20,462 nt of DNA from Candidatus Anstonellales archaeon. Its GTDB lineage: Archaea; Micrarchaeota; Micrarchaeia; Anstonellales; J096. Positions within the stretch are counted from its first letter, which is position 1; each line of letters starts with the position of its first letter. The stretch covers positions 1 to 20,462 of the forward strand of contig JAVYLQ010000007.1 in NCBI GenBank assembly GCA_038740615.1, in the 5' to 3' direction. A model generated the notes under the pieces. That model was not told the origin of the DNA and made no database searches. It was given only the letters and a program-made list of their open reading frames with translations. A program made the position numbers and the translations under genes. Of the stretch, positions 1 through 17,614 are shown piece after piece.

Positions 1-80
1 CTGCTATAAACAAGGATAAACATATAAGACAATTAATGAGTATGATGGCGGAATATTTAGGTTTGAGTAAGATCGAATAA
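1..80 (+). CDS. Probable 3' end of a gene entering from the left edge (..AINKDKHIRQLMSMMAEYLGLSKIE*)
   Basis: Frame starting at base 3 is open to TAA at 78-80, followed by a second TAA and an AT-rich spacer convergent with lemA. Too short to identify. Confidence 0.4.
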   Translation, partial: AINKDKHIRQLMSMMAEYLGLSKIE

Positions 81-174
81 TAATTAAAAATTAATGCTGG
101 TAAAAGTTTAAACAAAAGGCGAAACGATCAGAGATAATTATAACATAAAAATAAACGCTATAATTATATAGAAT

Positions 175-723
175 TTAGAACTCTACTTTAGGAACTTTTC
201 TCTCTTCCTCAGTTAAACTGAGATTTAGATAACTCTCCTCTCTAAATCCAAATATAATAGCAAACAGGTTGTTTGGAAATATCTTGATAGCGGTATTATA
301 TTTCTGAACAACATCGTTGTAAGACATTCTTGTGGCTGCTAGTTCCTGTTCTAATTTGGATAACTCCTGTTTAAGCACGAGGAAATTTTGATTAGCTTTC
401 AGGTCTGGATAGGCTTCAGCAATTGCAAATACACTCTTCAGAGCCTGTGTTATCATATTTGAAGTATCTATCCTATCCTGAAGACTCTGACTATTTAGAA
501 ATTTGGTTCTAAGTTCTATTATTTGATTTAGAGTTTCTCTCTCATGCTTTACGTATCCTTTTACAGTATTCACTAGGTTAGTAACCAGATCGACCCTCTT
601 TCTCAGTATAACATCTATTTGAGCTAAAGAATTTCTAACCCTCTCTCTAAGCTCAACTAACATATTATATGAGTAAATGGCATATATAATAACTATTAAG
701 GCAACAACTAACAATATGTCCAT
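175..723 (-). CDS. lemA: LemA family membrane protein
   Basis: N-terminal TM helix, then YN.LV..R..V.N..AQIDV.L.KR.DLV.NLVNTVKGY..HE.ETL, AEAYPDLKANQNF..L..EL, YND.V..YNT.I..FP.N..A..FGF: the LemA signature. Confidence 0.96.
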   Translation of the reverse strand: MDILLVVALIVIIYAIYSYNMLVELRERVRNSLAQIDVILRKRVDLVTNLVNTVKGYVKHERETLNQIIELRTKFLNSQSLQDRIDTSNMITQALKSVFAIAEAYPDLKANQNFLVLKQELSKLEQELAATRMSYNDVVQKYNTAIKIFPNNLFAIIFGFREESYLNLSLTEEERKVPKVEF

Positions 724-744
724 GATTTTCTATGAAAAAATAAA

Positions 745-750
745 TTTAAA
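745..750 (-). promoter_or_regulatory. TATA box (TTTAAA) for lemA
   Basis: 21 nt between hexamer and ATG at 723; same motif and similar spacing at other transcription-unit starts in the window. Confidence 0.55.
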
Positions 751-760
751 TTATTGAAGG

Positions 761-1375
761 TTAGAAAGGAATAAATTCTCCCTTTTCTATAACAAACACT
801 ATATTTATAGGTATCTCATGAATTTCCAGATCTACTTCTAGAATATCTAATAATCTTTGGATTACATGATCTTTAGTAGCAGCTAGGGTATATTTATTAT
901 TCTTAGCCATAAACATCGATCTCTTGTGATTTCTTGTGTAGATAAGATCTTTTGTATGAGTATCCAAGATAAACATGCTCCAAGCCCCTTCTCTATTTGT
1001 GAGGTATTCAACTAAATCTGTACCCTGATCTAGCAATCTAGTGAATTCCCAGCTATCACTCCTCCCATTCTGACCTATACCCCTAAACCCTCCATTATGC
1101 ATAACCCAAAATCTCTTACCTATTATGGGTTGCGTGTTTTCCAAATCTATCTCTCCCCTTGTTCTCTTTCTAGTATGGAATATAGCTTCTCTGAAACTCG
1201 TATTATAATTCCACTCTATAAAATTGTTAATATCTATATTTTTACTATAGGATTCTCTATCAAATACCCCACCAATTCCATCAGAGTTTCTAGAATACAT
1301 ATCTTTGAGAATTTCTTCTATTTCATACACATACGTATTTGAGATATTAGAATATATATACAGGAGCTCACACAC
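761..1375 (-). CDS. Stand-alone class II (Ntn) glutamine amidotransferase-like protein
   Basis: GTG start gives Met-Cys2 (Ntn nucleophile). Motifs RNSDGIG, FHTRKRTRG (H.R.AT.G), ENTQP, MHNG, SDS(W)E, GAWS are in class II GATase order; no fused synthase domain. Confidence 0.85.
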   Translation of the reverse strand: MCELLYIYSNISNTYVYEIEEILKDMYSRNSDGIGGVFDRESYSKNIDINNFIEWNYNTSFREAIFHTRKRTRGEIDLENTQPIIGKRFWVMHNGGFRGIGQNGRSDSWEFTRLLDQGTDLVEYLTNREGAWSMFILDTHTKDLIYTRNHKRSMFMAKNNKYTLAATKDHVIQRLLDILEVDLEIHEIPINIVFVIEKGEFIPF

Positions 1376-1399
1376 GTAGTTTATTGATATTTCTAGATA

Positions 1400-1405
1400 T
1401 TTAAA
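1400..1405 (-). promoter_or_regulatory. TATA box (TTTAAA) for the amidotransferase gene
   Basis: 24 nt upstream of GTG at 1375; back-to-back with the tRNA-Gln promoter. Confidence 0.55.
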
Positions 1406-1429
1406 GAATTATATTTGAAACAGATATCG

Positions 1430-1437
1430 TTTAAAAA
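1430..1437 (+). promoter_or_regulatory. TATA box (TTTAAAAA) for tRNA-Gln
   Basis: TTTAAA at 1430-1435, 34 nt before the mature tRNA 5' end. Confidence 0.5.
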
Positions 1438-1469
1438 CATTATCAATATTATTAAGATGCATATAACCA

Positions 1470-1542
1470 AGCCCCGTCGTCTAGTGGTCCAGGATGCGAG
1501 GCTCTGGCCCTCGAGACCCAGGTTCGAATCCTGGCGGGGCTA
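1470..1542 (+). tRNA. tRNA-Gln(CTG), intronless, CCA not encoded
   Basis: Acceptor AGCCCCG/CGGGGCT plus discriminator A; anticodon arm CGAGG-CTCTGGC-CCTCG; T arm CCAGG-TTCGAAT-CCTGG. The A1-U72 pair is typical of archaeal tRNA-Gln. Confidence 0.97.
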
Positions 1543-1575
1543 TTTGTTAAAAAAAGAGAACAAATTGAGGAAAAT

Positions 1576-2634
1576 TTATACGTGTGTGAATACTAGTGTA
1601 GATCTGTCTATCGATAATAGAGGATTCTTAAATTTTCTTGAAAGTGCATATAGCCTGAGTTCTATAGATGTAGATATCTCATACCATGCTAAATATTCTT
1701 CCTCTTTTCCAATAGCTCTAGCAGCTACATACTGTGCACCAGTTCTACCTAGGTTATAGTAGTGATTATTAAGAGCTGTGTTATAGTATAGGAATCTTTT
1801 TAACTCTCTTATTGCAAATGAGTATGGTTGTAATCTCAGTATATAGAAATCATTAAATTTGAAGTTGCTTGGCCTAAGGCCGTTAATATCTGCATATGTT
1901 GACATTCCATCTAGAACATATATAGGAATTCGATATACATCGGTTCGTTTCTTTATCATGAATCTCCTAGGCATAGTAAGGTCTAGAAAGTTTAAAGGTG
2001 TTTGATTAGATGTATCTTCATTTATTATTGCTGTGAAAAACACGTGGTTTTTAGGACTATTAGCAGGTCCTAGGTAGAAATCCACTGGAATCGTTTTCTC
2101 ATCAGTTTTCAAATGCTTTGTATAGATTCTACTTAATACGTTCCTAGCTATTAAATATTCTTTCAATGTAGAATCCGATGAAACTAGCTTGTTATACTCT
2201 TCTATAGTTAAATCATCCATTGCTTTACTTACCTTTTCTACGGTTTTGACCATATCATCAGAGTCAATATCATTGTTTTTCACTCTATTCATAACTACAG
2301 CGCCTATCCCTCCTGGCATGAGCATGAACACAACTATATAATCTAGAATATTATATGTGTTGCCTTCTGGACCAGCTTCTAGCTTGTAGTGGATTACATT
2401 CAATGGCTTCTCGATATTCATTGCTACATAGGTCTCGAACATATTTGGATTCATGTCAGGAGTCACTCTGGAAGTGTTGGTTGCTGGAACACAACTAGGT
2501 AGGGATAATAGTGCTGCTGATCCTAGAGCTAATTTTAGGAAAGCTCTTCTATCGATAGATCTATCTAGAGAAGTTTCTAGAGATACTTTACTGTTCTGAA
2601 TCTGCTCAGATTTAAGGTTCTGTTGGTGTTTCAT
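1576..2634 (-). CDS. Hypothetical exported lipoprotein with twin-arginine signal
   Basis: IDRRAFLK matches S/TRRxFLK, followed by hydrophobic LALGSAALLSL and lipobox-like LPSC, then a Pro/Thr linker. Mature part not recognised. Confidence 0.75.
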   Translation of the reverse strand: MKHQQNLKSEQIQNSKVSLETSLDRSIDRRAFLKLALGSAALLSLPSCVPATNTSRVTPDMNPNMFETYVAMNIEKPLNVIHYKLEAGPEGNTYNILDYIVVFMLMPGGIGAVVMNRVKNNDIDSDDMVKTVEKVSKAMDDLTIEEYNKLVSSDSTLKEYLIARNVLSRIYTKHLKTDEKTIPVDFYLGPANSPKNHVFFTAIINEDTSNQTPLNFLDLTMPRRFMIKKRTDVYRIPIYVLDGMSTYADINGLRPSNFKFNDFYILRLQPYSFAIRELKRFLYYNTALNNHYYNLGRTGAQYVAARAIGKEEEYLAWYEISTSIELRLYALSRKFKNPLLSIDRSTLVFTHV

Positions 2635-2657
2635 GTTAAATAGATGGGAAAATATCT

Positions 2658-2663
2658 TTTAAA
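2658..2663 (-). promoter_or_regulatory. TATA box (TTTAAA) for the Tat-lipoprotein gene
   Basis: 23 nt upstream of ATG at 2634. Confidence 0.55.
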
Positions 2664-2748
2664 AATTAATCCTGTGGTCAAATACAAGACGAAAAAATCA
2701 TTTATCTAGCCAAATATTCTTCTGCATTAATAGATCTTCTCTTATGGG

Positions 2749-2769
2749 AAAAGTAAAAAAAAATAAAAA
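2749..2769 (-). terminator. Archaeal oligo(T) terminator after the cellulase gene
   Basis: Minus strand reads TTTTTATTTTTTTTTACTTTT starting about 15 nt after the TAG at 2784. Confidence 0.6.
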
Positions 2770-2783
2770 GTGAAATACTATTG

Positions 2784-5564
2784 CTAGCGGCTTGCGCAGA
2801 ATCCAAAGCTTGTAGATGCTCCAGGTGCTAATACATTGTTCCAGGATGCACCTCTAAACACTAGGTTTGATCCTGAAGATACAAGCTCAGAATTCCAGTT
2901 ACTGTTTATAGTAGCTATACCATAGTTCGATCTAGGTATAGTTACCTGCCATGTTACTCGCTGAGAGTGCTGATTGTGTACGTCCACCTTAGCACAGAAC
3001 CCACTACCCCAATCTGATGTAATAGTTAATGTATAACTTACTTCAGTGGCGCTTACACTATCAGTATTCCAAGAACCGCAGAATCCAAAACTAGTGGATT
3101 GACCAGGATTGAGGAGATTGTTCCAGTGAGCTCCTGTGAATTCATATCCAGAACCACTAGGTGTAGGATTAGCATTCCATGCATTATTGATGGTAAATGG
3201 CATAGCTAGTTCTACATAAGTAGACCAGTAAACTGGTGTATTGAGATTATTTGTAACAGTAACTTCTGCGCAGAATCCACTACCCCAATCTGAAGTTATT
3301 CTAGCTGTATTAGGTAAGCTCTGATATATAGGTGGTGTCACATTTCCATTTGATTCTCCTGAGGAACTGTTGTTATTTGAAGAGTTATTACTAGAGTTAT
3401 TTGATCCACTAGAATTGTTGTTACTAGGTGGAGTTGTATTTGAATCATCTGAAGAATTGTTCAGTGAAGGTAGTGTAGATCCTAATTCCACGGAGAATTT
3501 GCTAAAGTTGTAGAATAGTTTCTGGGCAGTGGTTGAAGGAGATCCATATTCTGTACCAACCTCTATATTTTGCACATACATAGCATCTAATTGAGTTCTT
3601 GATTTGGTAGAGTATTGATATGTTAAATCTAAGAAAGTTTTCAAGTTGAACGATACTGTAGCTGCTAACATAGGAGTTTTAGATCTGAATGCAATATATT
3701 CCCAACCTATGTACCCTCTCCATACTTCAAACTCCATGTTAGTTAATACTCCATTCATGTACACAGGAACAACTACATCTCCTATCTTAGAACCCGCTGG
3801 ATTCAATCCATTATAATAAAACCATATCATTACTTCCACGTCTCCTGAGGCTACTCCTGAAGTAGGTCTGTATGTATTTGTTATCCATGTTTCAAATGCT
3901 AGATTTATTGGTCCGTCTGTGTATATACTGTAGGTTAGATTAACAGTCATATCTGGGAACTCGCTCATTCTCTTAGGAAATACATTTAGCTCATCGGCTA
4001 GCATTCCATTCCAAGGCTTGTTACCCACAAATATCTCTGGATATCCGTGTACCCAAGATCCAGGACTTATTAGAACGATATCATTTAGATCCTGCTCATA
4101 TCGTATTACTCCATTTTCATAGCACATCCTTGCATATCCTCTAGAGGACTGAATATTCCAAGGATTCACTTCCATAACGAAATCATATCTACCATTACCA
4201 TCACTATCTATATATGCTGATGGCCATCTCTCCTGTGGATAACTTATCAAGATGCCAGAACAGTCGGATCCACTAGGCTGGCTTGGAGCTGTGGTGTTAT
4301 TAGTTGTATTACTAGATTGACTGGAGGTAGTATTAGAAGGTGTTGTATTGCTAATAACTCCTGCTAGTGCATCTTGTTTAGAGACTAGACCTGAACAGTA
4401 ATCCATTAATCTCTTAAGATTGTTGTACTTTGCAATCTTCACACTATTCCAATCATCAGCTAGTATCCCTCCTGTATCTCCACTGTTAGGATTCCAGGAC
4501 CAGTAGAAGAAAGAACAGTAATCATTTAGAATCATCCAATCTACTATAGCTTTCTGCCATATTATATCGTTAGGATCATGTTCTCCGTACTTTCCTCCAA
4601 ACTCACCTATTATCACAGGTTTTCCTAATTCATCCTTTACATATCCAAAGTGCCTGTACCATATCTGTGGAAGATTATTAGGGAAATTCGGATCTGAGAA
4701 GTAAGGCTGCTGATATACATCTGGTCCATATACATGAGGGGAGTAGACTAGCTTATTAGCTGGAAGATTTACTGGATAATCTCTAACAGCCATCAGGTTT
4801 CCTCCCCACCAAGCATTTAATCCATACTGATAGGAACTATCTGTAGTTGGATTGGTTGCATAGGTTCCTTCGACAAAGATCAACCAGTGTGGGGCTTCCT
4901 GCAATATAGCATTACCTATTCTTTCTGCTGCCAGATTCCAATCAGTTGTCGGATTATAACCCCATGTTGAACCTGTTGTATATGGAGCATTCCCATTACT
5001 GTGTGGCTCATTCTTCAGATCGGCTCCTATAACATTGCTGAAGTTTTTGAATTCTCTAGCTACAATTCTCCAAGTCTGTATAAAATCAGATTCTGGATAA
5101 TCTTGAGTGTACCATAAAGGCTCTATGTAGTTACATCCGATCCTGTGATAATCCAGTAATACATATATACCTCTTGCTTCAGCCTCTGCAACGATCTTTT
5201 TCATAATCTGTAGAGGACTCAGACCTACTAGATCTAGATTTTTTGAATAATCTATTGTAGTTGGCAATCCACCCTGCCTTATTGATGCTCTACAGAAAGG
5301 AAGTCTTATAGCATTAAACCCTAGAGATTTTATCTGGTCTAGCATATCTCTGTAATTTCTACTCCATAGTCCATGCACTACCCTATCTGGTGTTTCAAAA
5401 CCAAACCAATTCACTCCATAGAGCTTGAGATGTTGAATGGTACCATTTGGATACTGAACATATACCTCAGTGCCGTTTACGAAATAATTGGGAACTGTTG
5501 CATTACTATAGATTACTAGCAATCCTATCATTCCAAAGAATAGAACTGTAAAATTACTATTCAT
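2784..5564 (-). CDS. Secreted multidomain endoglucanase/cellulase: signal peptide-GH5-linker-GH12-linker-CBM2-CBM2
   Basis: GH5 (about aa 25-390): GVNWFGFET, HGLW, GFNAIRLPF, LLDYH, DLKNEPH (E186), YSPHVYGPDV, IGEFGG (E321), YWSWNPNSGDTGG. GH12 (about aa 437-695): EVNPWN, WVHGYPEI..G.KPW, NLAFETW, GDVEVMIW (E577), EVGTE (E672). Two CBM2 repeats SDWGSGFCA...WN...WN..L.PG.STSFGFC. Confidence 0.93.
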   Translation of the reverse strand: MNSNFTVLFFGMIGLLVIYSNATVPNYFVNGTEVYVQYPNGTIQHLKLYGVNWFGFETPDRVVHGLWSRNYRDMLDQIKSLGFNAIRLPFCRASIRQGGLPTTIDYSKNLDLVGLSPLQIMKKIVAEAEARGIYVLLDYHRIGCNYIEPLWYTQDYPESDFIQTWRIVAREFKNFSNVIGADLKNEPHSNGNAPYTTGSTWGYNPTTDWNLAAERIGNAILQEAPHWLIFVEGTYATNPTTDSSYQYGLNAWWGGNLMAVRDYPVNLPANKLVYSPHVYGPDVYQQPYFSDPNFPNNLPQIWYRHFGYVKDELGKPVIIGEFGGKYGEHDPNDIIWQKAIVDWMILNDYCSFFYWSWNPNSGDTGGILADDWNSVKIAKYNNLKRLMDYCSGLVSKQDALAGVISNTTPSNTTSSQSSNTTNNTTAPSQPSGSDCSGILISYPQERWPSAYIDSDGNGRYDFVMEVNPWNIQSSRGYARMCYENGVIRYEQDLNDIVLISPGSWVHGYPEIFVGNKPWNGMLADELNVFPKRMSEFPDMTVNLTYSIYTDGPINLAFETWITNTYRPTSGVASGDVEVMIWFYYNGLNPAGSKIGDVVVPVYMNGVLTNMEFEVWRGYIGWEYIAFRSKTPMLAATVSFNLKTFLDLTYQYSTKSRTQLDAMYVQNIEVGTEYGSPSTTAQKLFYNFSKFSVELGSTLPSLNNSSDDSNTTPPSNNNSSGSNNSSNNSSNNNSSSGESNGNVTPPIYQSLPNTARITSDWGSGFCAEVTVTNNLNTPVYWSTYVELAMPFTINNAWNANPTPSGSGYEFTGAHWNNLLNPGQSTSFGFCGSWNTDSVSATEVSYTLTITSDWGSGFCAKVDVHNQHSQRVTWQVTIPRSNYGIATINSNWNSELVSSGSNLVFRGASWNNVLAPGASTSFGFCASR
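2790..3305 (-). repeat. Tandem duplication of a CBM2 module inside the cellulase gene
   Basis: CAGAA(T/C)CCACTACCCCAATCTGA at 3271-3293 and 2995-3017; CGCAGAATCCAAA at 3077-3089 and 2795-2807; matching protein repeats. Confidence 0.85.
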
Positions 5565-5591
5565 GAAATATTAATATTATACTCTAACTAT

Positions 5592-5597
5592 TTTAAA
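5592..5597 (-). promoter_or_regulatory. TATA box (TTTAAA) for the cellulase gene
   Basis: 27 nt upstream of ATG at 5564. Confidence 0.5.
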
Positions 5598-5646
5598 GCT
5601 ATCATATGATGCATTCAATAGTCAGAAAAATAAACAGGAAGTAAAT

Positions 5647-6588
5647 CTAGATTAACAATTTAAGAATCGACTCTTTTGCATATCTATATGTGTTTAGGTT
5701 TATACACTCTAATGAGCTGTGTAAGTATCTAACCCCATAGACTATTGATATAGCTCTCTCCCCCATCCTATATAGTGTAGTAGCATCAGTTACCTCATAT
5801 TTAGATCTGGTTTCAATTTTAGTATCCGCAATCCTTCTAGCCAATTCCTGAAGATTCTCTGGAGCTATATTCCCCCTTCCCCCTCCTTCAATAGGTATAT
5901 ACCCTAATCTATTCTCATCTATTCCAATAGAATCTGCATGTTGATCAGATGTTGAGTATATAACATCTAAGACTATGAAATTTGGGTTATTTATTCTAGA
6001 TTTTACATATCGAATAGCTTCTTCTAATCTTGTAGTCCCCTGTTCCTCCCCATGAGTTAGTATAAAGTTTATATCATACTCTCTTGCCAACTCTAATAAT
6101 AATATCACATTAGCTCTATTATCCAGAGCTCTTGAGAAAAGCTTATCTCCAGATAAAATAACTCTATTCTCAAAAGTAAATGGCCATAATGGGGGTAGAT
6201 CAACATCCTCTAGTATTTCAAGAAACAATCTTCTTTCAGAGGAATCTGTATGAGGCATAGGACTAGATCCTATAGCTATGATCTTCCTATCATTATACAG
6301 AGTTTGGAATACTTTACCATAACCGTTTTCTGGTGATATCAGTCCCATAGGTATTGTTCGGTATATATCTCTTGCATATCGATTATCAACAACAAAACCT
6401 ATTTCATCATAATGGGCTAAAAATACTATATTGCTCTTAGTAGAACTCAGATGTACTAGATTTAGTCCAGATTTCTCCACAGATATTCCAAAATCTCTAT
6501 TTATCATAGATGCAAATCTATCTATAAATAGTCCTTCAAAACCAGTTACCAGAGGCAAATCGTTTATCCTTTTCAAATACTCTATCAT
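5647..6588 (-). CDS. M42-family (M20/M28 clan) dinuclear metallopeptidase/amidohydrolase, divergent
   Basis: Metal and catalytic motifs in M42 order: LAHYDEIGF, RALDNR, GEEQG, LDV, RYLHSS.E. ATGA overlap with the upstream gene and GGTGA SD at 6596-6600. Confidence 0.85.
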   Translation of the reverse strand: MIEYLKRINDLPLVTGFEGLFIDRFASMINRDFGISVEKSGLNLVHLSSTKSNIVFLAHYDEIGFVVDNRYARDIYRTIPMGLISPENGYGKVFQTLYNDRKIIAIGSSPMPHTDSSERRLFLEILEDVDLPPLWPFTFENRVILSGDKLFSRALDNRANVILLLELAREYDINFILTHGEEQGTTRLEEAIRYVKSRINNPNFIVLDVIYSTSDQHADSIGIDENRLGYIPIEGGGRGNIAPENLQELARRIADTKIETRSKYEVTDATTLYRMGERAISIVYGVRYLHSSLECINLNTYRYAKESILKLLI

Positions 6589-7949
6589 ATATCTTTCACC
6601 ATACTTATTTTACCTCTGTTCATTTCCATCTGATGATTGATATTGTAATACATTGTATACCCATCTGAACTGGATTCAATCTGTTCTAGCACATCTATCA
6701 GATGCTTGAATGAGATACTTTCCAATTTTGGTTCTAGTTCCTCTCTCTCCATGGATATGATTCTAACATACCTAGCCTTTAGAGATTTTGCTAGTTCGTA
6801 AAATACTCTGTCTACTAATCCTCCCGTCATTACGTTCACTCCTCCCCAGTCACCTTCGATGAAATACAGATTTTCAATTGCATCAATATTCATTTTACCA
6901 ACTAATTCGCTTAGATAGAGACGCATGTTTAATTCATCTTTGATAGTTCTTGTGAATGCATCTATGAACTCAGCTCTAACATCACTTATATATCTCCTCA
7001 CTGTCAGTGCATTCAATATAGAATATATGTAATTCAGTATAATAACTGGATATTTGAATGATACTAATTCTTTCTCTTCTATTATCTGTTTGAGAGATTT
7101 CACATGATATTCATATTTTTTCCCAACATTACCAAGCTCTCTGGAGTAAGGGGTTATTATCAATCTGTTACTCCTGATCTCGATCCTTGTTGGGCTGTTG
7201 TAGTAACCATCAACATCAAACATTATAGGTAGAGAATATGTAGGGAATAGTTTGGCCTCCTCATCACTTAATACACTTCTGAACATGTTCTCAAGGAATC
7301 TCTCCAGCGTTTTCATAATATTGGAATGTATAATTAGACGATCAACGAAAGCTAGTACTGTCTCTTTACTAAAATTACTATCTGGAACTGATATTGGTAC
7401 TATATTCAGATTCTGCTTCATATTATCTTTAATCCCCAGATACTCAAGTGTATAATTGATTAGAAAAAGTGTAGCTTCAGTATCGAATAGCTTCATACTG
7501 ATTCCTTCTTTCTCTCCAATCCTCTCCATGAACTTTTTATAATCCTGTTCTGCATTGTTCTTCTGTATACTTCTAAAGCCCTTAAAAATTTCCTCTTGGT
7601 GAGATAGGAGCAACCTACCTAGATTATGGTGCTCTACTATGCTTAAAGCATTCTTAGAGGGTGTTAGCTCAAGAGGAAACACCTCCTCAACCCATACATT
7701 GAATTTTTTATCTGTATCTTTGGATTGGAATGTTCTTGGATAGTTGTATTCTCTGGTCGAAACTAATGAATCAATCACTGGAAACATTATAACATATCTA
7801 TTCTTCCTCAGTAGTTCAAGGGCCAACTTGCTTGCCTGTACTATATTCTGCACAGGAGAATCGATATAGATCCTATCTTTGTATTTTGTAATATTCCAGG
7901 CTCCTCTCCCCTCAAAAATTATAACGTCTCTACTTTTAGTAGTATTCAT
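6585..7949 (-). CDS. Hypothetical cytoplasmic protein, 454 aa
   Basis: Long ORF, TTTAAA box at 7971-7976 (21 nt upstream), translationally coupled to the M42 gene. No signal peptide or confidently recognised family. Confidence 0.8.
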   Translation of the reverse strand: MNTTKSRDVIIFEGRGAWNITKYKDRIYIDSPVQNIVQASKLALELLRKNRYVIMFPVIDSLVSTREYNYPRTFQSKDTDKKFNVWVEEVFPLELTPSKNALSIVEHHNLGRLLLSHQEEIFKGFRSIQKNNAEQDYKKFMERIGEKEGISMKLFDTEATLFLINYTLEYLGIKDNMKQNLNIVPISVPDSNFSKETVLAFVDRLIIHSNIMKTLERFLENMFRSVLSDEEAKLFPTYSLPIMFDVDGYYNSPTRIEIRSNRLIITPYSRELGNVGKKYEYHVKSLKQIIEEKELVSFKYPVIILNYIYSILNALTVRRYISDVRAEFIDAFTRTIKDELNMRLYLSELVGKMNIDAIENLYFIEGDWGGVNVMTGGLVDRVFYELAKSLKARYVRIISMEREELEPKLESISFKHLIDVLEQIESSSDGYTMYYNINHQMEMNRGKISMVKDI

Positions 7950-7971
7950 AAGTTTAAATGGAATAATAGTT

Positions 7972-9114
7972 TTAAATTTTAATCCTATCTACAACCCAGT
8001 CTATATTATAATTTTCATCATATACTTCTATAGGGATACCTAGAGAACCTATTTCCTGTTGAATCTTCTTTAGAGCCACATCTGCATTAGGTCCTCCTCT
8101 TCTAACAATTATCCTGACCTGATGATCGAGAAACTGTTCTTTATATTCTAATATTGCCTTTATTATCCCGTCAAAAGTTTTAGATACATCTGTAAAGTTA
8201 GCAATACCTCCTCCCAAGACTAGCACTTTTGGTTTGGAAGGGCTTCTGAACATTGCTCTGAAGAATATTTTAGCATATTCGTACGTCTCTGTTATAGTAG
8301 GGTTTCCACTATATTCAGCATAATTAGCTATCTCTTTTCCATAGCCGGCTAAATAGATACTATCAAGGAATACCACACTTGCTCCTCCTCCAGCAGTCAT
8401 CAACCAGATAGATCCATTTGGATTCAAGATTGTGAATTTGAAAGAGGCACCAGTATTCTTATCTAATTCTTCAACCATCTTCTCCTCTTCGTAACTACCT
8501 TTTTCAAAGGGTTCAGGAAATTCTATATCCCATTTAGCCCTGAAGTGTGCATAATCATCAAATTCCGCCAACATTCCCAGAGGGACTATCTTCCCATCTA
8601 TCTCTGTATATGGATTAATCTCCAAATAAGAGATGTCCATATCGATGCAGAATTTGTGTATCTCTGGAAACTGTTCGGAGAGTTTACCCTGTGGAACGAA
8701 TTCCTCTTGAACAGTATCCCATTTCTCCTCTATATCCACACCCCCACTATCGGAATACAATATTCTATCCCCCTCTCTCTCAGAGATTATTGCCAAATAC
8801 TTTTCCTCACTGTGAGGGATAAATTCCTCGACCAAAAAATGCCTCACCTCTCCATTGTAGATACGATATCCATAATTTTTCCTTATGAATTCTTTAACCT
8901 GTTCTATATCTAGATTCAATCCCACTAATCCTGTCTTCTGCCTCTTATTAAACATTTCATCAGCTTTTACTACATATCTCTTGGATCTATCTAATAATTT
9001 ATCTAAAATATCTAATTGTTTAAGATCTGATATCAGTACTCCTTGATAATCAGAACCAAAATACTTATAGAATATTCTCTTCAAATCATATTCTCTAACT
9101 CTTTTCCGAGCCAT
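7972..9114 (-). CDS. aclB: ATP-citrate lyase beta subunit (citryl-CoA synthetase ATP-grasp + citrate-binding domains)
   Basis: MARKRVREYD, VVK.D...KR.K.GLVGLN, GGVDIE, YLEINP, FPEPF, LD..TGAS.K.TILNP.G.IW.M.AGGGASVV..D, ANY.EYSG.P, GGGIANFTDV..TF.GII.A, VRRGGPN. These match ACLY N-terminal half / AclB rather than SucC. Confidence 0.9.
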   Translation of the reverse strand: MARKRVREYDLKRIFYKYFGSDYQGVLISDLKQLDILDKLLDRSKRYVVKADEMFNKRQKTGLVGLNLDIEQVKEFIRKNYGYRIYNGEVRHFLVEEFIPHSEEKYLAIISEREGDRILYSDSGGVDIEEKWDTVQEEFVPQGKLSEQFPEIHKFCIDMDISYLEINPYTEIDGKIVPLGMLAEFDDYAHFRAKWDIEFPEPFEKGSYEEEKMVEELDKNTGASFKFTILNPNGSIWLMTAGGGASVVFLDSIYLAGYGKEIANYAEYSGNPTITETYEYAKIFFRAMFRSPSKPKVLVLGGGIANFTDVSKTFDGIIKAILEYKEQFLDHQVRIIVRRGGPNADVALKKIQQEIGSLGIPIEVYDENYNIDWVVDRIKI

Positions 9115-9138
9115 GATCTAAGCTTTGATGGTACATTA

Positions 9139-9144
9139 TTTAAA
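9139..9144 (-). promoter_or_regulatory. TATA box (TTTAAA) for aclB; divergent AT-rich box at about 9164-9176 probably serves the + strand gene
   Basis: 24 nt upstream of ATG at 9114 in a 78-nt divergent spacer. Confidence 0.55.
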
Positions 9145-9192
9145 CCTAATTGAAACAATTACATTTTTTAATTAAAGCCCATATTATAACAC

Positions 9193-9930
9193 ATGTATTG
9201 GCTACTAATTTTTATACTTATCACATATTCCTCTCAGAACATAATACCAATCAATAAAGATATGAATATTATTGAAGCCACAACGTATCCCACTATCCCA
9301 GTGATATTAGAATTCGATCCAAAAGTAGGAGATAGGGAGTATGATATATATGAGATGGAATTACCAGAGGGATGGGTATCCAACAGTCCTGCTAGATTTC
9401 AAAACCCAATAAGGATCATAATAACCCCACCGGATACTTCTGCTGGTTTGTACATCATTCCAATCAGATTCATAGATGAATATGAAATCAACCCTCTACC
9501 TACCAAAACTGTGCTAGTATATGTAAATGTATCCAGAGATCTATTCAGAGTTAGAACAGAAGGAGAAATAACTGGAAACTACAAACAACCAGTTCGATTC
9601 AGAGTGGAGATTGAATCCAAGGCCCCAGCTACTTATATAATAGAAGCTCGTAGCTATAATAATAGATTCCTTAAAGAGGTTTATGTTAAAGATAGATACG
9701 GACAGCTGATTGAGTTTATATATCCGTTTGAAGGAGATTTTAAAATCGATTTAGAGGTCAGACCCAAATATTCAAGTACTATGAAATATAGGACTGAAAT
9801 AATAGCTAAGATAAGAGAAGATCTATTCATGGATTTCCAGGCTTACAAATATGGAGCTCTACTGTATTTCCAGCAGAATTCATTGATTGCTAGTATTCTG
9901 AATATTCTCTACCAACTTCTTAATAGATAG
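9193..9930 (+). CDS. Hypothetical exported/surface protein with beta-sandwich (NEW3/Ig-like) domains
   Basis: Short signal peptide MYWLLIFILITYSS; ELPEGW...ITPPDTSAGLYII resembles the NEW3 pattern; beta-strand alternation; amphipathic C-terminal helix. 3' end overlaps taw3 by 51 nt. Confidence 0.7.
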   Translation: MYWLLIFILITYSSQNIIPINKDMNIIEATTYPTIPVILEFDPKVGDREYDIYEMELPEGWVSNSPARFQNPIRIIITPPDTSAGLYIIPIRFIDEYEINPLPTKTVLVYVNVSRDLFRVRTEGEITGNYKQPVRFRVEIESKAPATYIIEARSYNNRFLKEVYVKDRYGQLIEFIYPFEGDFKIDLEVRPKYSSTMKYRTEIIAKIREDLFMDFQAYKYGALLYFQQNSLIASILNILYQLLNR

Positions 9931-10443
9931 ATAGAATCTATTTAGCATATTAAAATTTCTTCTTAGCATATTATTTATTAATTCTATTAGCTCCTCATCT
10001 ATTATCAATTTACTCACTGGTGCGGATAGATATACATTCCCCATTAGCTCTATGAAATATCCTACCTTGATTCTCTGTATCCCCCCTCTTTTAATACCAG
10101 CTGCTCTCGCTGCTCTCATTATGCTATCGGCAGTATCCAAATCTTCAGTTATGATGTGTATTATGAAAGGCTCTACTCTTAGCCAAGTATTAGAATCTTT
10201 AGGGATATCTTTCAAATCCTCTATGCTTATATATCTATGAAATGTTAAATACTTCTCACTATCAATTTTTCTACCTCTATCAATCAGAACCATAACCCTA
10301 CCAGAACAGCTAGATGTGGTGAATGCTCTATCCATTGAATTTATGATATTGATCAGAGGTATTATAGGTTCATCTACTTCCTGCTGCTCCAGATAATACT
10401 GTAATTTTTTCATAGTAGCACTCTTTCTAGCCTGAAAGCTCAT
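9880..10443 (-). CDS. taw3: tRNA(Phe) wyosine-derivative N4-methyltransferase Taw3/TYW3
   Basis: VDEPIIPL...IN....FTTSSCSGR signature, FH, EPFIIHI, AR.AG.K..GI. Confidence 0.92.
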   Translation of the reverse strand: MSFQARKSATMKKLQYYLEQQEVDEPIIPLINIINSMDRAFTTSSCSGRVMVLIDRGRKIDSEKYLTFHRYISIEDLKDIPKDSNTWLRVEPFIIHIITEDLDTADSIMRAARAAGIKRGGIQRIKVGYFIELMGNVYLSAPVSKLIIDEELIELINNMLRRNFNMLNRFYLSIKKLVENIQNTSNQ

Positions 10444-11077
10444 CTTTGATTATCTTAATCAGCTGATCAGAAGTGAGATAGCCATATTTCTTAGATCTAT
10501 AGATTATAGTGGGATAGTCTGTTATGTTGTTCTTTCTAGCAAGATATTCCCCCAACCCTTCCATCAATCCATCAAAAGAGTATACCCTTAACATAATCCC
10601 TTCATTTCTCAATCTGTTTCTAACCTCTGAAATCTCAAAACCCTGCTCATAGCATCTATCACAAGGTCTTGTATCATTATTGTAGTAGAAGTAGATTATA
10701 TATTCAGTACTATAATTACATCTTTCTATCCCGGTCTGTAATAGAAGATAATCTCGGTATAGATATTCGAAATACAGATTTTTCAAATCTCTATCTACTC
10801 TACCCTGGGACTCTAGATACTCAATTCTCTCCCCTAATTTCCAACTGGTCTGTTCTAATCTGGGAAATAGATAATTGAAAAGAGAGCAGAATTCCTCACT
10901 ATCCCTTTCAGATATAGCCTGTAACAGACCTATTTTGGAGCTAAGTTCATTTATCTCACTGACAGTCTTCTCATTGAGGGATTTGGTATATCCCCATCCT
11001 AGAACAAAACCTGCCATGAATATAACTAGCACAATTACAAATCCCGTGAAGAATACCAAATAATCTATTGATCTCAT
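10427..11077 (-). CDS. Membrane-anchored extracellular protein with helical stalk and C-terminal thioredoxin-like CxxC domain
   Basis: N-terminal TM, helical region with two Cys, then IIYFY...PCDRCYEQG...VYSFD...NITDYPTII. Start placed at ATG 11077 (ATGA overlap with GT2 stop, AGGTG at 11087-11091) rather than the GTG at 11089. Confidence 0.75.
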   Translation of the reverse strand: MRSIDYLVFFTGFVIVLVIFMAGFVLGWGYTKSLNEKTVSEINELSSKIGLLQAISERDSEEFCSLFNYLFPRLEQTSWKLGERIEYLESQGRVDRDLKNLYFEYLYRDYLLLQTGIERCNYSTEYIIYFYYNNDTRPCDRCYEQGFEISEVRNRLRNEGIMLRVYSFDGLMEGLGEYLARKNNITDYPTIIYRSKKYGYLTSDQLIKIIKDELSG

Positions 11078-12375
11078 CTTGTCTCCCACCTATTCTGAGC
11101 CTGTGTTATTTCTTTGTATATAACGAATGGCCAGACGAAGAACCATGCCCAACCGAACATGATCATAAACCCAATAAAATCAATTATCTCCTTTGATGAT
11201 ACCTTCTTATCTCCAGCTTTATCGCGCAATATGTTGATCATATGTATCTGCCAAGGTAACAGAATTATCCAAAATACGAATGTAGCTATCATAAAGTGAT
11301 CTACCATAAGTTCAAGTATATCAAAACCCAATCTAAATATCCATAGCTGATGGTCTATTAAGAATAGTATTAGACTCAGGAAGAATGTTGAGAATGGAAC
11401 AAAGAATAGAACATCTAAGAGATATCCAAAAACGAACAGATTCCCCCATTTAATATCTAATAGATCTTGGTGTTTTATTCTGTTCCAAATCCCTCCTCTG
11501 ATCCATCGAACTCTCTGCTTTATCAATGCACTCAAGCTCTTTGGAACTTCTGTATAAGCGAATGCATCTAAGGAAGATAATACTTTATACCCATGTTTCT
11601 GTAAATTCATAGCTATCTCCTGATCCTCAGTTAGACTATTTGTATCGAATAATCCTACTTTCATAACGGCCTCTTTTCTAAAAGCACTCAAACCACCTGG
11701 AGTTACATACACACTGTCAAATGCCTCAAGAATGCGTCGATATACCAAGATTATATCGTATTCGATACTTTGCCACTTAGTTAGATTGGTGTTACTATTC
11801 AATACCCTTACACTACCTGATACTGCCCCCACCATAGGTTCATCGAAATAAGAAGCGAGTTTAGCTGGAGCCTCCCTATCTATAATACTATCTGAATCGA
11901 TTGTTATTATAATATCCCCTGAAGAATTTAATATACCCACATTTTTTGCTGAGGCGGCTCCACCATTCTCCTTTCTAATCACCCTAATATTATCATATCT
12001 TTTTGCATAATCATCAAGTATTATACCAGTGTTATCAGTGGATCCATCATCTACAACTATCACCTCAAACCTGTCCTTAGGATAATCTATGTTCATCAGT
12101 GAGTCCAAGCATTTCCTTATATTCTCCCCCTCATTATATACAGGTACTACAAAACTTATCCTATAATTATAATTCTTACCAGATGATCTAACTATGTAAT
12201 CGTATTTATCAATTAATTTTGTAATAAATACAAAGCTTATTGTAAAAACTATAAAAAAAGAAACTATTGCTAAAAAATATCTAACAGGTTTTGCAAGATT
12301 CAATAATATTATAGCTATTAATAACACAATAAGTGCAATTAGAAATAGTCTAACATGTTTCTGATCAAATCTCAT
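11074..12375 (-). CDS. Processive-type GT2 membrane glycosyltransferase (PgaC/IcaA/cellulose-synthase-like)
   Basis: Two N-terminal TMs; VPVYNE, VDDGSTD, IDSD, LTED, QRVRW (D,D,D,QxxRW); several C-terminal TMs. Start overlaps atpD by 11 nt. Confidence 0.92.
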   Translation of the reverse strand: MRFDQKHVRLFLIALIVLLIAIILLNLAKPVRYFLAIVSFFIVFTISFVFITKLIDKYDYIVRSSGKNYNYRISFVVPVYNEGENIRKCLDSLMNIDYPKDRFEVIVVDDGSTDNTGIILDDYAKRYDNIRVIRKENGGAASAKNVGILNSSGDIIITIDSDSIIDREAPAKLASYFDEPMVGAVSGSVRVLNSNTNLTKWQSIEYDIILVYRRILEAFDSVYVTPGGLSAFRKEAVMKVGLFDTNSLTEDQEIAMNLQKHGYKVLSSLDAFAYTEVPKSLSALIKQRVRWIRGGIWNRIKHQDLLDIKWGNLFVFGYLLDVLFFVPFSTFFLSLILFLIDHQLWIFRLGFDILELMVDHFMIATFVFWIILLPWQIHMINILRDKAGDKKVSSKEIIDFIGFMIMFGWAWFFVWPFVIYKEITQAQNRWETR

Positions 12376-12976
12376 CTTTCTTCAACGATTTGAGTTTAAC
12401 AAAATTCTCTCTTTCCATCTCTTCCAATTTCTGTTTAATAAGCTCTATATCCCGTTCTATCTTTGGAATAATAACATATTGTAAAGAATTAACTCTACGT
12501 TTCGTTTTCTTAATCTCCTTAAGTATATATTTAAGACTTGCAGTTATCTCTGTTAGATCTATGAGTATATTTATCAACTCTCTATTCTGCATTACCAAGG
12601 CACCTAATGATACGGATTTGAGAAATGGATAATATGGGGTTCTATCGGTTCTATTCAGAGTTATTTTAGGAATTCTTACACCCATAACATTCCTGTAGGT
12701 TATATCCATCGAGTAATCTATTGCGTTATATTTTGCTATTGCCTCTAGTTCGGCATATGTGTACTCTTCAGACACTACTCTTGCTATGTTCTTACTGTTC
12801 TTGATCAATCTATCAACCTCTCCCTGTTTCTCCTTAAATTTCTTGATCAATTCGAATAGATGTGAAATCAGAACATCTAGTTTTCTCTTGAGAAGCGAAT
12901 GGCCCTTTCTAGCTAGAGCTAATCTATTCTTTAATTTCAGTAGTTCCATTCGAGTGTATTGTATATCACTTGACAT
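12365..12976 (-). CDS. atpD: A/V-type ATP synthase subunit D
   Basis: [55 protein letters not shown]. Confidence 0.97.
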
Positions 12977-14330
12977 ATTTCCTCAGATACTTTTCAATCT
13001 CCTCTTTCTTAACTTTCTTAAGCTCACTCTCTGGCAAAATACTTAACAGCTCCCAACCTAATTCAAGACTCTTTTCTATATCCCTCCTCTCATTTCTCTT
13101 CTGAGCTATAAATCTTCTTTCAAACTCATCTGCAAATTTAAGATATTTCCTGTCTGTTTCTCCTAGAGAATCCTCTCCTACTACTGCAGCTAATGCTCTG
13201 AGATCCCTACCATTTGCATATGCTGCATATAACTGATTACTAACATTCTTATGATCCTCTCTAGTTTTATCCTTACCTATTCCATTATTCATCAATCTAC
13301 TTAAACTAGGCAATGGATCTATTGCAGGATACAAACCCTTCCTGTGCAATTCTCTACTCAGTACTATCTGCCCTTCAGTAATGTAACCAGTTAGATCTGG
13401 AATAGGATGAGTTCTATCATCACTAGGCATTGTTAGTATTGGTATCTGTGTTACACTACCTTTTCTCCCCACAACAATTCCAGCTCTTTCGTATATTGTT
13501 GCAAAATCAGTATACATATAACCTGGATATCCTCTTCTCCCAGGTACCTCTTTCCTAGCCCCAGAGATCTCTCTGAGTGCCTCGGCATAGTTAGTTATAT
13601 CTGTTATTATTACCAATACATGCATATCTCTCTGGAAAGCTAGATACTCTGCTACTGTTAGGGCCAATCTAGGTGTTAGCAATCTCTCTATGGCAGGGTC
13701 ATTAGCTAGATTCAAGAACAGTACAGATCTATCGATAGCCCCTGTTCTCTCAAAATCTTTCCTAAAAAACAGTGCTTCGTCATAGGTAATACCTATTGCT
13801 GCAAACACTACTGCAAAATTCTCTCCTTTAACATTAGCCTGTCGAGCGATCTGTGCAGCCAATTCATTGTGAGGTAAACCTGATCCAGAGAATATAGGTA
13901 GTTTCTGACCTCTCACAAGAGTATTCATAACATCTATAGTAGATATACCTGTCTCTATGAAATCATTTGGAGGTCTTCTTGCAAATGGATTGATAGGTTC
14001 ACCATTTACATTCAATCTTAACTCAGATTTGATGATACTCCCATCTAGTGGTCTGCCAAAACCATCAAACACCTTACCTAATACATCGTCACTAACTCCA
14101 AATAGCATAGGTTCTGCTGTAAACGATACTGTAGCGTTCCTATTCAAATCTATTGTATTACCAAATACCTGTATAACTGCTATACCCTCTCTAGCTTCTA
14201 GTACCTGTCCCTTTAATCTCTCCCCATTCTCTTTTCTTATATCAACTATCTCCCCGTACATGACTGGATGATCTACTCTTACAAACATCAGAGGACCTGC
14301 AATGTCCTGTACAGTTTTATATTCTATCAT
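12966..14330 (-). CDS. atpB: A/V-type ATP synthase subunit B
   Basis: [75 protein letters not shown] at 14339-14344. Confidence 0.99.
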
Positions 14331-14332
14331 TT

Positions 14333-16039: not shown

Positions 16040-16326
16040 TATTTCAACACCTCAATTCCCAGAGCATCTTTCAGCTCCTTTTTAATCTGATCAATTTCAT
16101 TTAAATAGACTATTATTGCTTTCGATCTATTTAAATAGAATTTGTGAACGGCTCTATCTATTGTCAATCTTTCGTCTAGGAATATCACTCCCATATTATC
16201 ATCAGATAACATTTCCTTCAACTTCTGATTGAATTCTTCATTAGTATCTACTATATAAACATCTGGGATCCCAGCTACATAAAAGCCTATACAGAAATCC
16301 TTTTTACCCAACACTCCAATCCTCAC
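16039..16326 (-). CDS. atpF: A/V-type ATP synthase subunit F
   Basis: MRIGVLG..DF..GF..AGI, MGVIFLDE, ALGIE; position between C and A; TAATG coupling to atpA. Confidence 0.9.
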   Translation of the reverse strand: MRIGVLGKKDFCIGFYVAGIPDVYIVDTNEEFNQKLKEMLSDDNMGVIFLDERLTIDRAVHKFYLNRSKAIIVYLNEIDQIKKELKDALGIEVLK

Positions 16327-17604: not shown

Positions 17605-17614
17605 ATTAATGATT

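Follow-up and report, generated by a model that had tools for sequence, protein, structure and literature searches.

Single-domain hyperthermophile endoglucanases related to the two catalytic domains considered here include EGPh of P. horikoshii (PDB 3axx and 2zum), a protein of 458 aa that has neither GH12 nor CBM2 and ends in a membrane anchor, and EGPf (EglA) of P. furiosus (PDB 3vgi). A multidomain relative, MDG of the free-living saccharolytic Thermococcus sp. 2319x1, has the architecture GH5-GH12-GH12-CBM2-CBM2, with an N-terminal export segment, S/T/N linkers and both CBM2 modules at the C terminus. MDG is described as an endoglucanase acting on CMC, Avicel, beta-glucan and lichenan (PMC4853606), and structures of its GH12 domains have been reported (PDB 7s8k; PMC12265866). 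The solved enzymes of this group are characterised in these reports as endoglucanases active at 80-100 C (PMC4853606, PMC12265866).

Among DPANN archaea, Ca. Nanohalobium constans, which lives with Halomicrobium, is described as a symbiont whose own polysaccharide hydrolases benefit the host: it hydrolyses alpha-glucans and thereby raises host growth (10.1101/794461). Since GH5 enzymes or 'endoglucanases' are already counted in published surveys of DPANN genomes (PMC5864196, PMC12153355), a cellulase in such a genome is not new in itself. Here, we describe a cellulase gene of a Candidatus Anstonellales archaeon and compare it with these systems.

Results

The cellulase gene and its modules

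In the window, which is the whole stretch of 20,462 nucleotides that was analysed, the cellulase gene occupies positions 2784 to 5564 on the minus strand as one ORF of 926 codons followed by a TAG stop codon at 2786-2784. The earlier note had read this ORF as GH5-GH12-CBM2-CBM2, and profile searches together with matches to solved structures bore out the architecture. Because the match to solved enzymes is so long and strong, a chance resemblance is implausible, and the ORF is, judged by its sequence, a true GH5-GH12-CBM2-CBM2 cellulase gene. The orthologue in a sister species has no internal stops. The gene also has its own candidate transcription signals, as had been noted. Read from the sequence, an archaeal TATA-box-like TTTAAAA lies at 5591 to 5597 on the minus strand with its centre about 30 nt 5' of the ATG, a distance so short that the mRNA may be leaderless or nearly leaderless, and an archaeal terminator-like oligo-T tract (T5-A-T9) lies at 2755 to 2769 on the same strand, 15-30 nt 3' of the stop codon.

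The GH5 catalytic domain (residues 27-390; 4395 to 5486, minus strand) was placed by its Pfam profile and by structure matches. PF00150 scored 176.6 bits over residues 50-361 against a curated cut-off of 23.5, residues 19-416 matched EGPh (3axx) with an E value of 2.8e-174, in keeping with the EGPh-type GH5 that had been proposed, and Acidothermus E1 was another strong match. We take both EGPh and Acidothermus E1 to belong to CAZy subfamily GH5_1. By alignment column counts, E186 (the acid/base, in an NEP motif) and E321 (the nucleophile) correspond to E201 and E342 of EGPh, and the catalytic pair is thus intact, as the note had it. The domain also keeps R87, H140, N185, H277, Y279 and W355 of the EGPh active site, and its cysteine pairs 91/144 and 350/390 correspond to both EGPh disulfides. 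PMC4853606 gives eight active-site residues and four cysteines for EGPh, and all of them are kept here; the same paper names the reference catalytic residues of EGPh and EGPf.

The GH12 catalytic domain (residues 438-700; 3465 to 4253, minus strand) was located by structure matches and by a profile search on a fragment. Among solved structures, its best match was 7s8k, a GH12 structure of MDG (1.4e-71), followed by 3vgi, which is EglA of P. furiosus (6.7e-68), in agreement with the earlier assignment to the EglA type. PF01670 was not listed when the full-length protein was scanned; on the isolated fragment 421-727, it scored 89.5 bits (cut-off, 27). Column counts equate E577 (nucleophile) and E672 (acid/base) with E197 and E290 of EGPf, so that this catalytic pair is also intact as claimed, and the E197A mutant chain 3wxp points to the same nucleophile column as E577. 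The DxDxDG calcium site of EGPf is partly kept: the motif reads DSDGNG, and D68, D70, D72, N74, E76 and D142 of EGPf become D453, D455, N457, R459, D461 and E525, two of the six ligand positions being identical. The eight GH5 active-site residues, the four GH5 cysteines and both GH12 glutamates are conserved in all six single-GH12 relatives that were aligned.

PF00553 (CBM_2) matched two stretches of the protein (E value, 9e-34), as expected from the two CBM2 modules that had been recognised. The first (residues 750-840; 3045 to 3317, minus strand) has cysteines at 765 and 829, and its W760, W796 and W814 align Trp-to-Trp with the three tryptophans of the Cex CBM2 (1exg), presumably those numbered W17, W54 and W72 that bind cellulose. 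The second (residues 841-926; 2787 to 3044, minus strand) has tryptophans at 852, 872, 890 and 908 and cysteines at 857 and 923; Trp 852, 890 and 908 were assigned to its binding face from Trp positions alone.

A Kyte-Doolittle scan of the 926 aa gave a single hydrophobic segment, residues 5-25 (5490 to 5552, minus strand), which may be a signal peptide or a signal anchor. The scan showed no C-terminal membrane segment, consistent with the claim that the protein has no C-terminal anchor. No Lys or Arg stands ahead of residues 5-25, and since a basic n-region is thus missing, the cellulase is possibly kept anchored to the symbiont rather than released. Linker 1 (residues 391-437; 4254 to 4394, minus strand) is S/T/N-rich with N-X-S/T sequons, and linker 2 (residues 701-749; 3318 to 3464, minus strand) is N/S-rich with many sequons. 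The whole protein has 24 sequons and 10 cysteines in plausible pairs, and DsbA-like proteins are among the products of the genome. We predict that the cellulase is exported.

The locus and its neighbours

In a second species, represented by an NCBI MAG and a JGI contig, the cellulase was found between the corresponding flanks at 94% nucleotide identity. Locus L002 was collinear with window positions 176-15565 (93.8% identity) and locus L074 with positions 1-13565, and both gene borders were bridged by contigs from four public runs belonging to four studies. Among the 18 runs listed, there was none of RNA, which speaks neither for nor against expression. The flanks shared by L002, L074 and the contigs of the four runs include the ATP synthase operon. 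This recurrence shows that the contig is not chimeric at the gene borders, a possibility that the earlier note had raised. The GC3 of the cellulase gene was 0.294 (genome mean, 0.287 +/- 0.028) and its codon usage was genome-typical; its overall GC of 0.387 was 1.8 sd over the genome mean. The dN/dS ratio was 0.126 for the cellulase gene, 0.068 for GH5, 0.157 for GH12 and 0.02 to 0.16 for the neighbours, and the dS of the cellulase gene was similar to that of the neighbouring genes. The cellulase gene is native to this genome and under purifying selection. An artefact, in which the gene of another organism was brought in by chimeric assembly or mis-binning, would fit the raised overall GC and the fact that the best characterised relatives are from the Thermococcales, but in view of the recurring flanks with the ATP synthase operon, the genome-typical GC3 and codon usage, and a dS equal to that of the neighbours, we consider its probability negligible.

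Adjoining the cellulase gene is orf352, an orphan gene of 352 aa (1576 to 2634, minus strand) that carries RRAFLK as a Tat-like signal and LPSC as a lipobox-like motif. It encodes a fast-evolving putative lipoprotein (dN/dS, 0.63), and its distribution matches the narrow one of the cellulase; a search against the protein atlas returned no usable match. A tRNA-Gln(CTG) gene (1470 to 1542, plus strand) forms the low-side limit of the two-gene variable segment. In two congeners, the slot by the M42 gene is instead taken up by surface proteins that are rich in N/Q/T and have a C-terminal anchor, and the locus thus behaves like a variable surface-protein site. A link of the cellulase to the adjoining M42 'CelM-like' peptidase was considered and rejected: the genome has three M42 paralogues, and the neighbouring M42 gene is also kept in congeners that have no cellulase.

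Distribution and phylogeny of the cellulase

Relatives of the cellulase were found in 3 of the 401 phylum genomes searched, all within one genus; the architecture is therefore rare in the phylum, so that the refuting condition of the earlier note, an architecture common in the lineage, does not apply. Since three of the six genus genomes (77-88% complete) gave no match, the gene is dispensable for the lineage. The closest full-length relative was P0272 (MEO2154797.1), from a MAG labelled Nanoarchaeota, with 51.7% identity over residues 23-925. P0002 and P0272 are uncharacterised metagenomic proteins with the same GH5-GH12-CBM2-CBM2 order, P0272 being collinear with the cellulase, whereas P0003 and P0273, likewise uncharacterised, have an extra GH114 (GH5-GH12-GH114-CBM2-CBM2). 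All four share every catalytic residue with the cellulase and have likewise unusual N termini without basic residues, but they are only about 50% identical to it, and their organism is known at most by a MAG label. The nearest GH12 was that of P0003 (53-54% identity). Grouping of four rows drawn with this set was not rejected for GH5 or GH12; the four-row GH12 clade had a support of 5, and tree supports around the query were weak. A search for short GH12 proteins gave seven matches, and a profile-free search was taken instead.

MDG has the same families in the same order as the cellulase and had been named as the closest architecture. It is not: its identity is 45% overall (67% in GH5) vs 52% for P0272, and the GH5-GH12-GH114-CBM2-CBM2 cluster is also nearer. 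In profile searches, the cellulase had a single GH12 domain, whereas the proteins of Thermococcus, Desulfurococcales and Acidilobaceae had two, so it does not have the three catalytic domains of the Thermococcus-type MDG. In the tree, its GH5 groups in a starred clade with proteins of Thermococcales and of Desulfurococcales/Acidilobaceae. Its GH12 shares 45% identity with GH12-2 of MDG and 30% with GH12-1, and the phrase 'one-GH12 relative' of the Thermococcus enzyme holds as a description. It does not hold as a demonstrated deletion, because this GH12 is in a different subclade from MDG GH12-2 and outside the clade formed by the GH12-2 domains of three-domain enzymes.

Two independent acquisitions in the genus were also considered, since the GH5 of genome G260 lies outside the 17-row clade and the immediate flanks differ. 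We did not retain this idea. A single clade is compatible with the AU test (p = 0.49), both genomes have homologues of LemA and orf454 no more than 6 kb away from the cellulase, and the GH5 identity of 66% is no lower than the 50-62% of housekeeping genes between these genomes.

The host genome and sugar metabolism

The genome is 0.54 Mb in size and 83% complete, and near-identical public records are labelled Micrarchaeota or Anstonellales, which supports the reduced DPANN context that the earlier note had proposed. The genome ORF calls were crude, ORFs under 60 aa were left out of the scan, and three of the four batches of Pfam scans were run at E <= 1e-9; as a rough impression rather than a count, some 40% of the ORFs stayed without a Pfam match at these thresholds. 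Among the 582 genome ORFs and 20 window ORFs, no GH or CBM domain was found besides those of the cellulase. Pyruvate kinase was the sole glycolytic enzyme matched among the 602 ORFs, and the glucokinase, PGI, PFK, aldolase, TIM, GAPDH and PGK families gave no match in this set.

The absence of a nearby sugar transporter or beta-glucosidase, noted earlier, was confirmed for the 20 window ORFs and then across the 83%-complete genome, where six-frame searches found no GH1, GH3, BPD_transp_1 or enolase. For enolase, GH1 and BPD_transp_1 (the ABC sugar permease), the absence extended to all six genus genomes, with the controls found in 14, 7 and 14 of 14 genomes, respectively. The genome does hold one MFS_1 transporter and a phosphoglucomutase-type enzyme, which make some sugar use by the archaeon possible, as well as sugar nucleotidyltransferases and many glycosyltransferases. 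The small-genome Anstonellales lineage is described as having a very limited metabolism (PMC12892359).

Discussion

The gene is native and very probably encodes a functional, exported, heat-stable endo-beta-1,4-glucanase, whose cellulase activity and thermostability we predict from its sequence. With solved relatives that are active at 80-100 C, the protein can reasonably be put forward as a candidate thermostable cellulase. GH5 and GH12 would each act independently as a retaining endo-beta-1,4-glucanase, and glycosylatable linkers would join both to the two CBM2 modules, with which the protein would grip crystalline cellulose. The CBM2 pair would keep the enzyme on insoluble beta-glucan, and both catalytic domains would cleave internal beta-1,4 bonds to give cello-oligosaccharides. 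Horizontal transfer out of the hot-spring archaeal gene pool probably brought the gene into this Micrarchaeota lineage, which is hyperthermophile-like and very reduced; the confinement of relatives to one genus of the phylum and the placement of the GH5 in the tree favour this origin. It was probably already fused as GH5-GH12-CBM2-CBM2 at that time, which suggests a transfer en bloc.

The released sugars would be consumed by the host or neighbours, with the symbiont gaining indirectly. Since no beta-glucosidase, sugar ABC permease or upper/middle glycolysis was detectable, the host or neighbours are the most likely users. The suggestion that the enzyme serves to feed may thus stand for the host or neighbours, while feeding of the archaeon itself is unlikely. 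Such cross-feeding is speculative, and we propose it tentatively. Taken as a whole, a native, thermostable, exported glucanase that was acquired by transfer and whose products feed the host is the best explanation, and we hold it with moderate confidence. Ca. Nanohalobium constans serves as the model for the proposed role, yet its described substrate is alpha-glucan, its setting is halophilic, and its enzymes are unrelated to the cellulase here. It is also described as fermenting sugars itself, whereas the present genome shows no means to do so. The organism that carries the cellulase is a 0.54-Mb symbiont-type archaeon, unlike the Thermococcus that carries MDG.

Three other roles have to be weighed against host feeding. 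The enzyme could be a tool for attachment or invasion that cuts beta-glucan of the biofilm matrix or host surface glycans to reach or hold the host. The surface proteins that fill the slot by the M42 gene in two congeners, the adjoining fast-evolving putative lipoprotein orf352, and an uncleaved N-terminal anchor that would put the enzyme on the symbiont's own surface all favour this role. The two CBM2 modules with a planar three-Trp face, combined with GH5 and GH12, are however the classic kit for insoluble cellulose, and beta-1,4-glucan is, to our knowledge, not an established component of archaeal envelopes; we regard an attachment tool as unlikely. It is still less likely that the archaeon feeds itself by taking up glucose or cellodextrins via genes that are unassembled or too divergent. 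The genome is just 83% complete, roughly 40% of its ORFs have no Pfam match, and the MFS_1 transporter, phosphoglucomutase-type enzyme, sugar nucleotidyltransferases, glycosyltransferases and pyruvate kinase leave room for this. Against it stand the lack of enolase, GH1 and ABC sugar permease in all six genus genomes when the controls were found, the lack of any upper or middle glycolytic family from glucokinase to PGK among the 602 ORFs, and the limited metabolism described for the lineage.

The cellulase might also trim a self-made beta-glycan together with a membrane GT2, in the way that BcsZ-type endoglucanases act when bacteria make cellulose. A membrane GT2 synthase-like gene (11074-12375) lies 5.5 kb from the cellulase gene, with Glyco_trans_2_3 and chitin-synthase-like matches and a QRVRW motif, and residues 73-363 of its product match cellulose synthase BcsA at about 5e-10. 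However, the GT2 gene is present in all five congeners, including those that have no cellulase, so the two genes do not co-occur; six unrelated genes separate them, the GT2 has its best solved match in a family-2 transferase of non-cellulose type, and a double CBM2 is typical of degradative rather than trimming enzymes. We therefore consider trimming very improbable.

DPANN archaea are usually viewed as takers. If host feeding is true, this gene, which takes up 0.5% of the genome, would clearly show a reduced symbiont supplying a host function at high temperature, through an enzyme whose products the symbiont apparently cannot use. It is conceivable, though less likely than not, that a sugar-unable, host-dependent archaeon keeps a large secreted cellulase in order to serve its host and that the four-module enzyme perhaps moved between Micrarchaeota and a Nanoarchaeota-labelled lineage. 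If so, the symbiont would open cellulose for a partner unable to attack it and would receive everything else in exchange, and the four-module enzyme could be a shared tool of symbionts in two DPANN phyla. Cellulose enrichments at spring temperature offer a testable handle for finding the host. In addition, the cellulase unites, in a compact natural protein, two endoglucanase domains of hyperthermophile type with two cellulose-binding modules.

Domain composition and conserved residues of the cellulase

The cellulase gene (window 2784-5564, minus strand) is an uninterrupted reading frame of 926 codons. An earlier note, made from the sequence alone, had read it as a GH5-GH12-CBM2-CBM2 enzyme with intact catalytic glutamates, no C-terminal membrane anchor, and a promoter box and terminator of its own, and every point of that observation that could be checked was confirmed. 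Pfam placed the GH5 domain at residues 50-361 (PF00150, 176.6 bits) and found two CBM_2 stretches. In a search of solved structures, residues 19-416 matched the Pyrococcus horikoshii endoglucanase EGPh (E = 2.8e-174), and residues 438-700 matched 7s8k, a GH12 chain from Thermococcus sp. 2319x1 (1.4e-71), and P. furiosus EglA (6.7e-68). PF01670 (GH12) was absent from the Pfam listing of the full-length protein and scored 89.5 bits on the isolated fragment (cut-off 27).

By alignment columns, E186/E321 of the GH5 domain correspond to E201/E342 of EGPh, and E577/E672 of the GH12 domain to E197/E290 of the P. furiosus enzyme EGPf, the residues named as catalytic in PMC4853606. For EGPh, that paper also gives six more residues of the active site and a pair of disulfides, all of which the cellulase keeps (R87, H140, N185, H277, Y279, W355, C91/C144 and C350/C390). 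The GH12 domain keeps the EGPf calcium motif only in part (DSDGNG). W760, W796 and W814 of the first CBM2 are each aligned with a Trp of the Cex module. The only hydrophobic segment spans residues 5-25, and none was found at the C terminus. The protein has 10 cysteines, with plausible pairings, and 24 N-X-S/T sequons, mostly within two linkers. TTTAAAA lies about 30 nt upstream of the ATG, and there is a T5-A-T9 run downstream of the stop codon.

By homology with characterized enzymes, each catalytic domain would be a retaining endo-beta-1,4-glucanase, and the two CBM2 would hold the protein on insoluble cellulose. N-glycosylation of the linkers is probable, and the protein is presumably exported. 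Since the N terminus of the cellulase lacks basic residues, as do those of two relatives (P0272 and P0003) but not Thermococcus-type signal peptides, it could be an uncleaved anchor.

The cellulase gene in its genome

The assembly comprises 541,905 bp in 31 contigs (83% complete, 0.4% contaminated), and the window is one entire contig of 20,462 bp. The earlier note had allowed for a chimeric contig at the gene borders. L002, a public MAG contig of a sister species titled Candidatus Micrarchaeota archaeon, was collinear with window 176-15565 in a single 15.4-kb alignment at 93.8% identity, which takes in the cellulase gene, its flanks on either side and a portion of the ATP synthase operon. L074, a JGI metagenome contig 99.8% identical to L002, was collinear with window 1-13565. 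Contigs from four public hot-spring runs of four studies bridged both borders, and one covered 1500-7000 as a single piece; one of the runs may be the source of the window. An assembly artifact is now very unlikely. L074 alone carries about 1.1 kb of extra sequence (L074:13383-14491 versus L002:15383-15388), just past the point matching the first bases of the window.

The GC3 of the gene was 0.294, against 0.287 +/- 0.028 for 352 genes of at least 200 amino acids, and it ranked 250th of the 352 in codon-usage distance, counted from the most deviant; its raised total GC is an effect of amino acid content. Against the L002 orthologue, dN/dS was 0.126 (GH5, 0.068; GH12, 0.157), with dS comparable to that of neighboring genes. 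Of 12 other genes in the block, 10 had dN/dS of 0.02-0.12, a GATase-like gene 0.156 and the orphan orf352 0.625. The cellulase gene thus dates back to the ancestor that the two species share, and selection has kept both catalytic parts.

Sugar metabolism and the proposed role

Crude ORF calling gave 632 ORFs of at least 50 amino acids. We scanned with Pfam the 582 of at least 60 amino acids outside the window (batch 1, E <= 1e-5; batches 2-4, E <= 1e-9) and 20 window ORFs (E <= 1e-3). Among these, the cellulase was the sole protein with a glycoside hydrolase or CBM domain, pyruvate kinase was the sole glycolytic enzyme seen, and no sugar-binding ABC system was found; the scan also showed a single MFS_1 transporter and an enzyme of the phosphoglucomutase type. 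Six-frame family searches of this 83% complete genome gave no GH1, GH3, BPD_transp_1 or enolase. The 20 window ORFs included no sugar transporter or beta-glucosidase. Enolase, BPD_transp_1 and GH1 were likewise absent from all six genomes of the genus (77-88% complete), with control genomes positive.

No route for using the products is apparent in the genome, and purifying selection acts on the gene. Our favored, tentative reading is that a host or neighbors feed on the products, as with Nanohalobium, the model for this role (10.1101/794461). This ecological reading is a proposal, and an interesting one. Cutting of a biofilm or host-surface glycan seems unlikely, and hidden self-feeding by the archaeon more doubtful still. 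Trimming of a polymer made by the archaeon itself would involve the nearby membrane GT2 (window 11074-12375, minus strand), which weakly matches cellulose and hyaluronan synthases and contains a QRVRW motif; however, this GT2, directly after atpD, is kept in all five congeners whether or not the cellulase is there, and we consider such trimming highly improbable.

Distribution within the genus and the variable locus

Relatives were found in 3 of 401 sampled genomes of the phylum, this one included, all within one genus (3/6 genomes). The L002 species (G290) encodes a full-length cellulase and G260 a 546-amino-acid GH5-CBM2-CBM2 protein. In a quick GH5 tree, G260 fell outside the 17-row clade (support 96) holding the query; in the AU test, uniting the three Micrarchaeota rows was not rejected (p = 0.49). 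In this genome as in G260, homologues of LemA and orf454 are no more than 6 kb away from the gene. The cellulase may have been gained either once or twice within the genus.

In congeners G176 and G313, the M42-orf454-ACL synteny is preserved, and the proteins encoded beside M42 (L069:2-1018 and L068:2436-3044, respectively) are N/Q/T-rich and anchored to the membrane at the C terminus; both contigs end inside these genes. This suggests that the slot adjoining M42 is a variable, hard-to-assemble surface-protein locus. In the window, the variable segment bounded by tRNA-Gln and M42 consists of the cellulase gene and orf352 (1576-2634, minus strand), a 352-amino-acid orphan with no Pfam family and a Tat-like RRAFLK signal followed by a lipobox-like LSLPSC. 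As narrowly spread as the cellulase, orf352 was found in one of five congeners (the sister species) and in two Anstonellales-labeled MAG proteins, and its dN/dS (0.63) is well over that of every neighbor. A 114-amino-acid ORF (1415-1759, plus strand) runs over tRNA-Gln (1470-1542) and into the end of orf352; almost certainly, it is no gene.

The M42 peptidase (5647-6588, minus strand) had a weak score (54.8 bits), and its family has historically been misannotated as endoglucanase; its adjacency to the cellulase looks coincidental. The genome has three M42 paralogues, the other two at L050:8018-8887 and L052:6355-7350.

Relatives outside the genus

The GH5 domain shares 65-72% identity with a tight group of archaeal proteins, among them those of Thermococcus, Desulfurococcales, Acidilobaceae and Ignisphaera. 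The GH12 domain is more isolated: among 1.84 billion representatives, 37 proteins matched at E <= 1e-30, the best outside its own cluster at 54% identity. To the three-domain enzymes, it is 45-47% identical at their second GH12 and about 30% at the first. In a GH12 tree of 68 of 177 domain hits, chosen by score and coverage with two near-duplicates removed, the query grouped with P0003, P0002 and P0123, separate from the clade with the second GH12 domains. P0272, labeled Nanoarchaeota archaeon and from the 90% cluster of P0002, shares the GH5-GH12-CBM2-CBM2 plan and 51.7% identity over residues 23-925; P0273 has an additional GH114 domain.

We then considered the query, its L002 orthologue, P0002 and P0003 as a group, defined only after the trees were seen. 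For GH12, this group was already in the best tree, with a support of just 5. For GH5 (53 of 127 rows: 30 chosen plus every fourth of the remainder, less three duplicates and one long row), constraining the four together gave a likelihood 10.5 units above the quick free search (p-AU = 0.72). One fused ancestor of the single-GH12 group would fit these results, which are not proof of it.

Full-text searches found no paper describing this cellulase or a GH5-GH12-CBM2-CBM2 enzyme in DPANN archaea. PMC5864196 and PMC12153355 already report, in general terms, GH5 counts and "endoglucanase" for DPANN genomes. The cellulase sequences are deposited under automatic cellulase names. The cellulase is a known kind of enzyme in an unusual host.

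Lineage and other features of the genome

Composition, with an F(IVYWREL) of 0.458, gives a rough estimate of about 90°C. Near-identical proteins and contigs are labeled Candidatus Micrarchaeota or Candidatus Anstonellales. As a lead, genome size, GC (34.5%) and coding density (about 93%) are consistent with the high-temperature Anstonellales lineage of small genomes reported in PMC12892359, the main text of which contains none of the terms GH5, endoglucanase, cellulose and glycoside hydrolase.

In a genome almost without central metabolism, ATP-citrate-lyase-like beta (Citrate_bind and ATP-grasp; window 7972-9114, minus strand) and alpha (Citrate_synt and Ligase_CoA; L037:1-1773) subunits are encoded, as are malic enzyme, pyruvate kinase and 2-oxoacid:ferredoxin oxidoreductase. 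The A-type ATP synthase operon (window 12365-19890, minus strand) appears complete (subunits I, K, C, F, A, B and D by Pfam, with two small unassigned ORFs at the H and E positions), which is notable given the tiny genome. Giant ORFs of 2401, 1369, 1065 and 860 amino acids (loci L041:10444-17646, L040:9922-14028 and L038:13913-19690), which matched no Pfam family at E <= 1e-9, may encode proteins of the surface or of host interaction.
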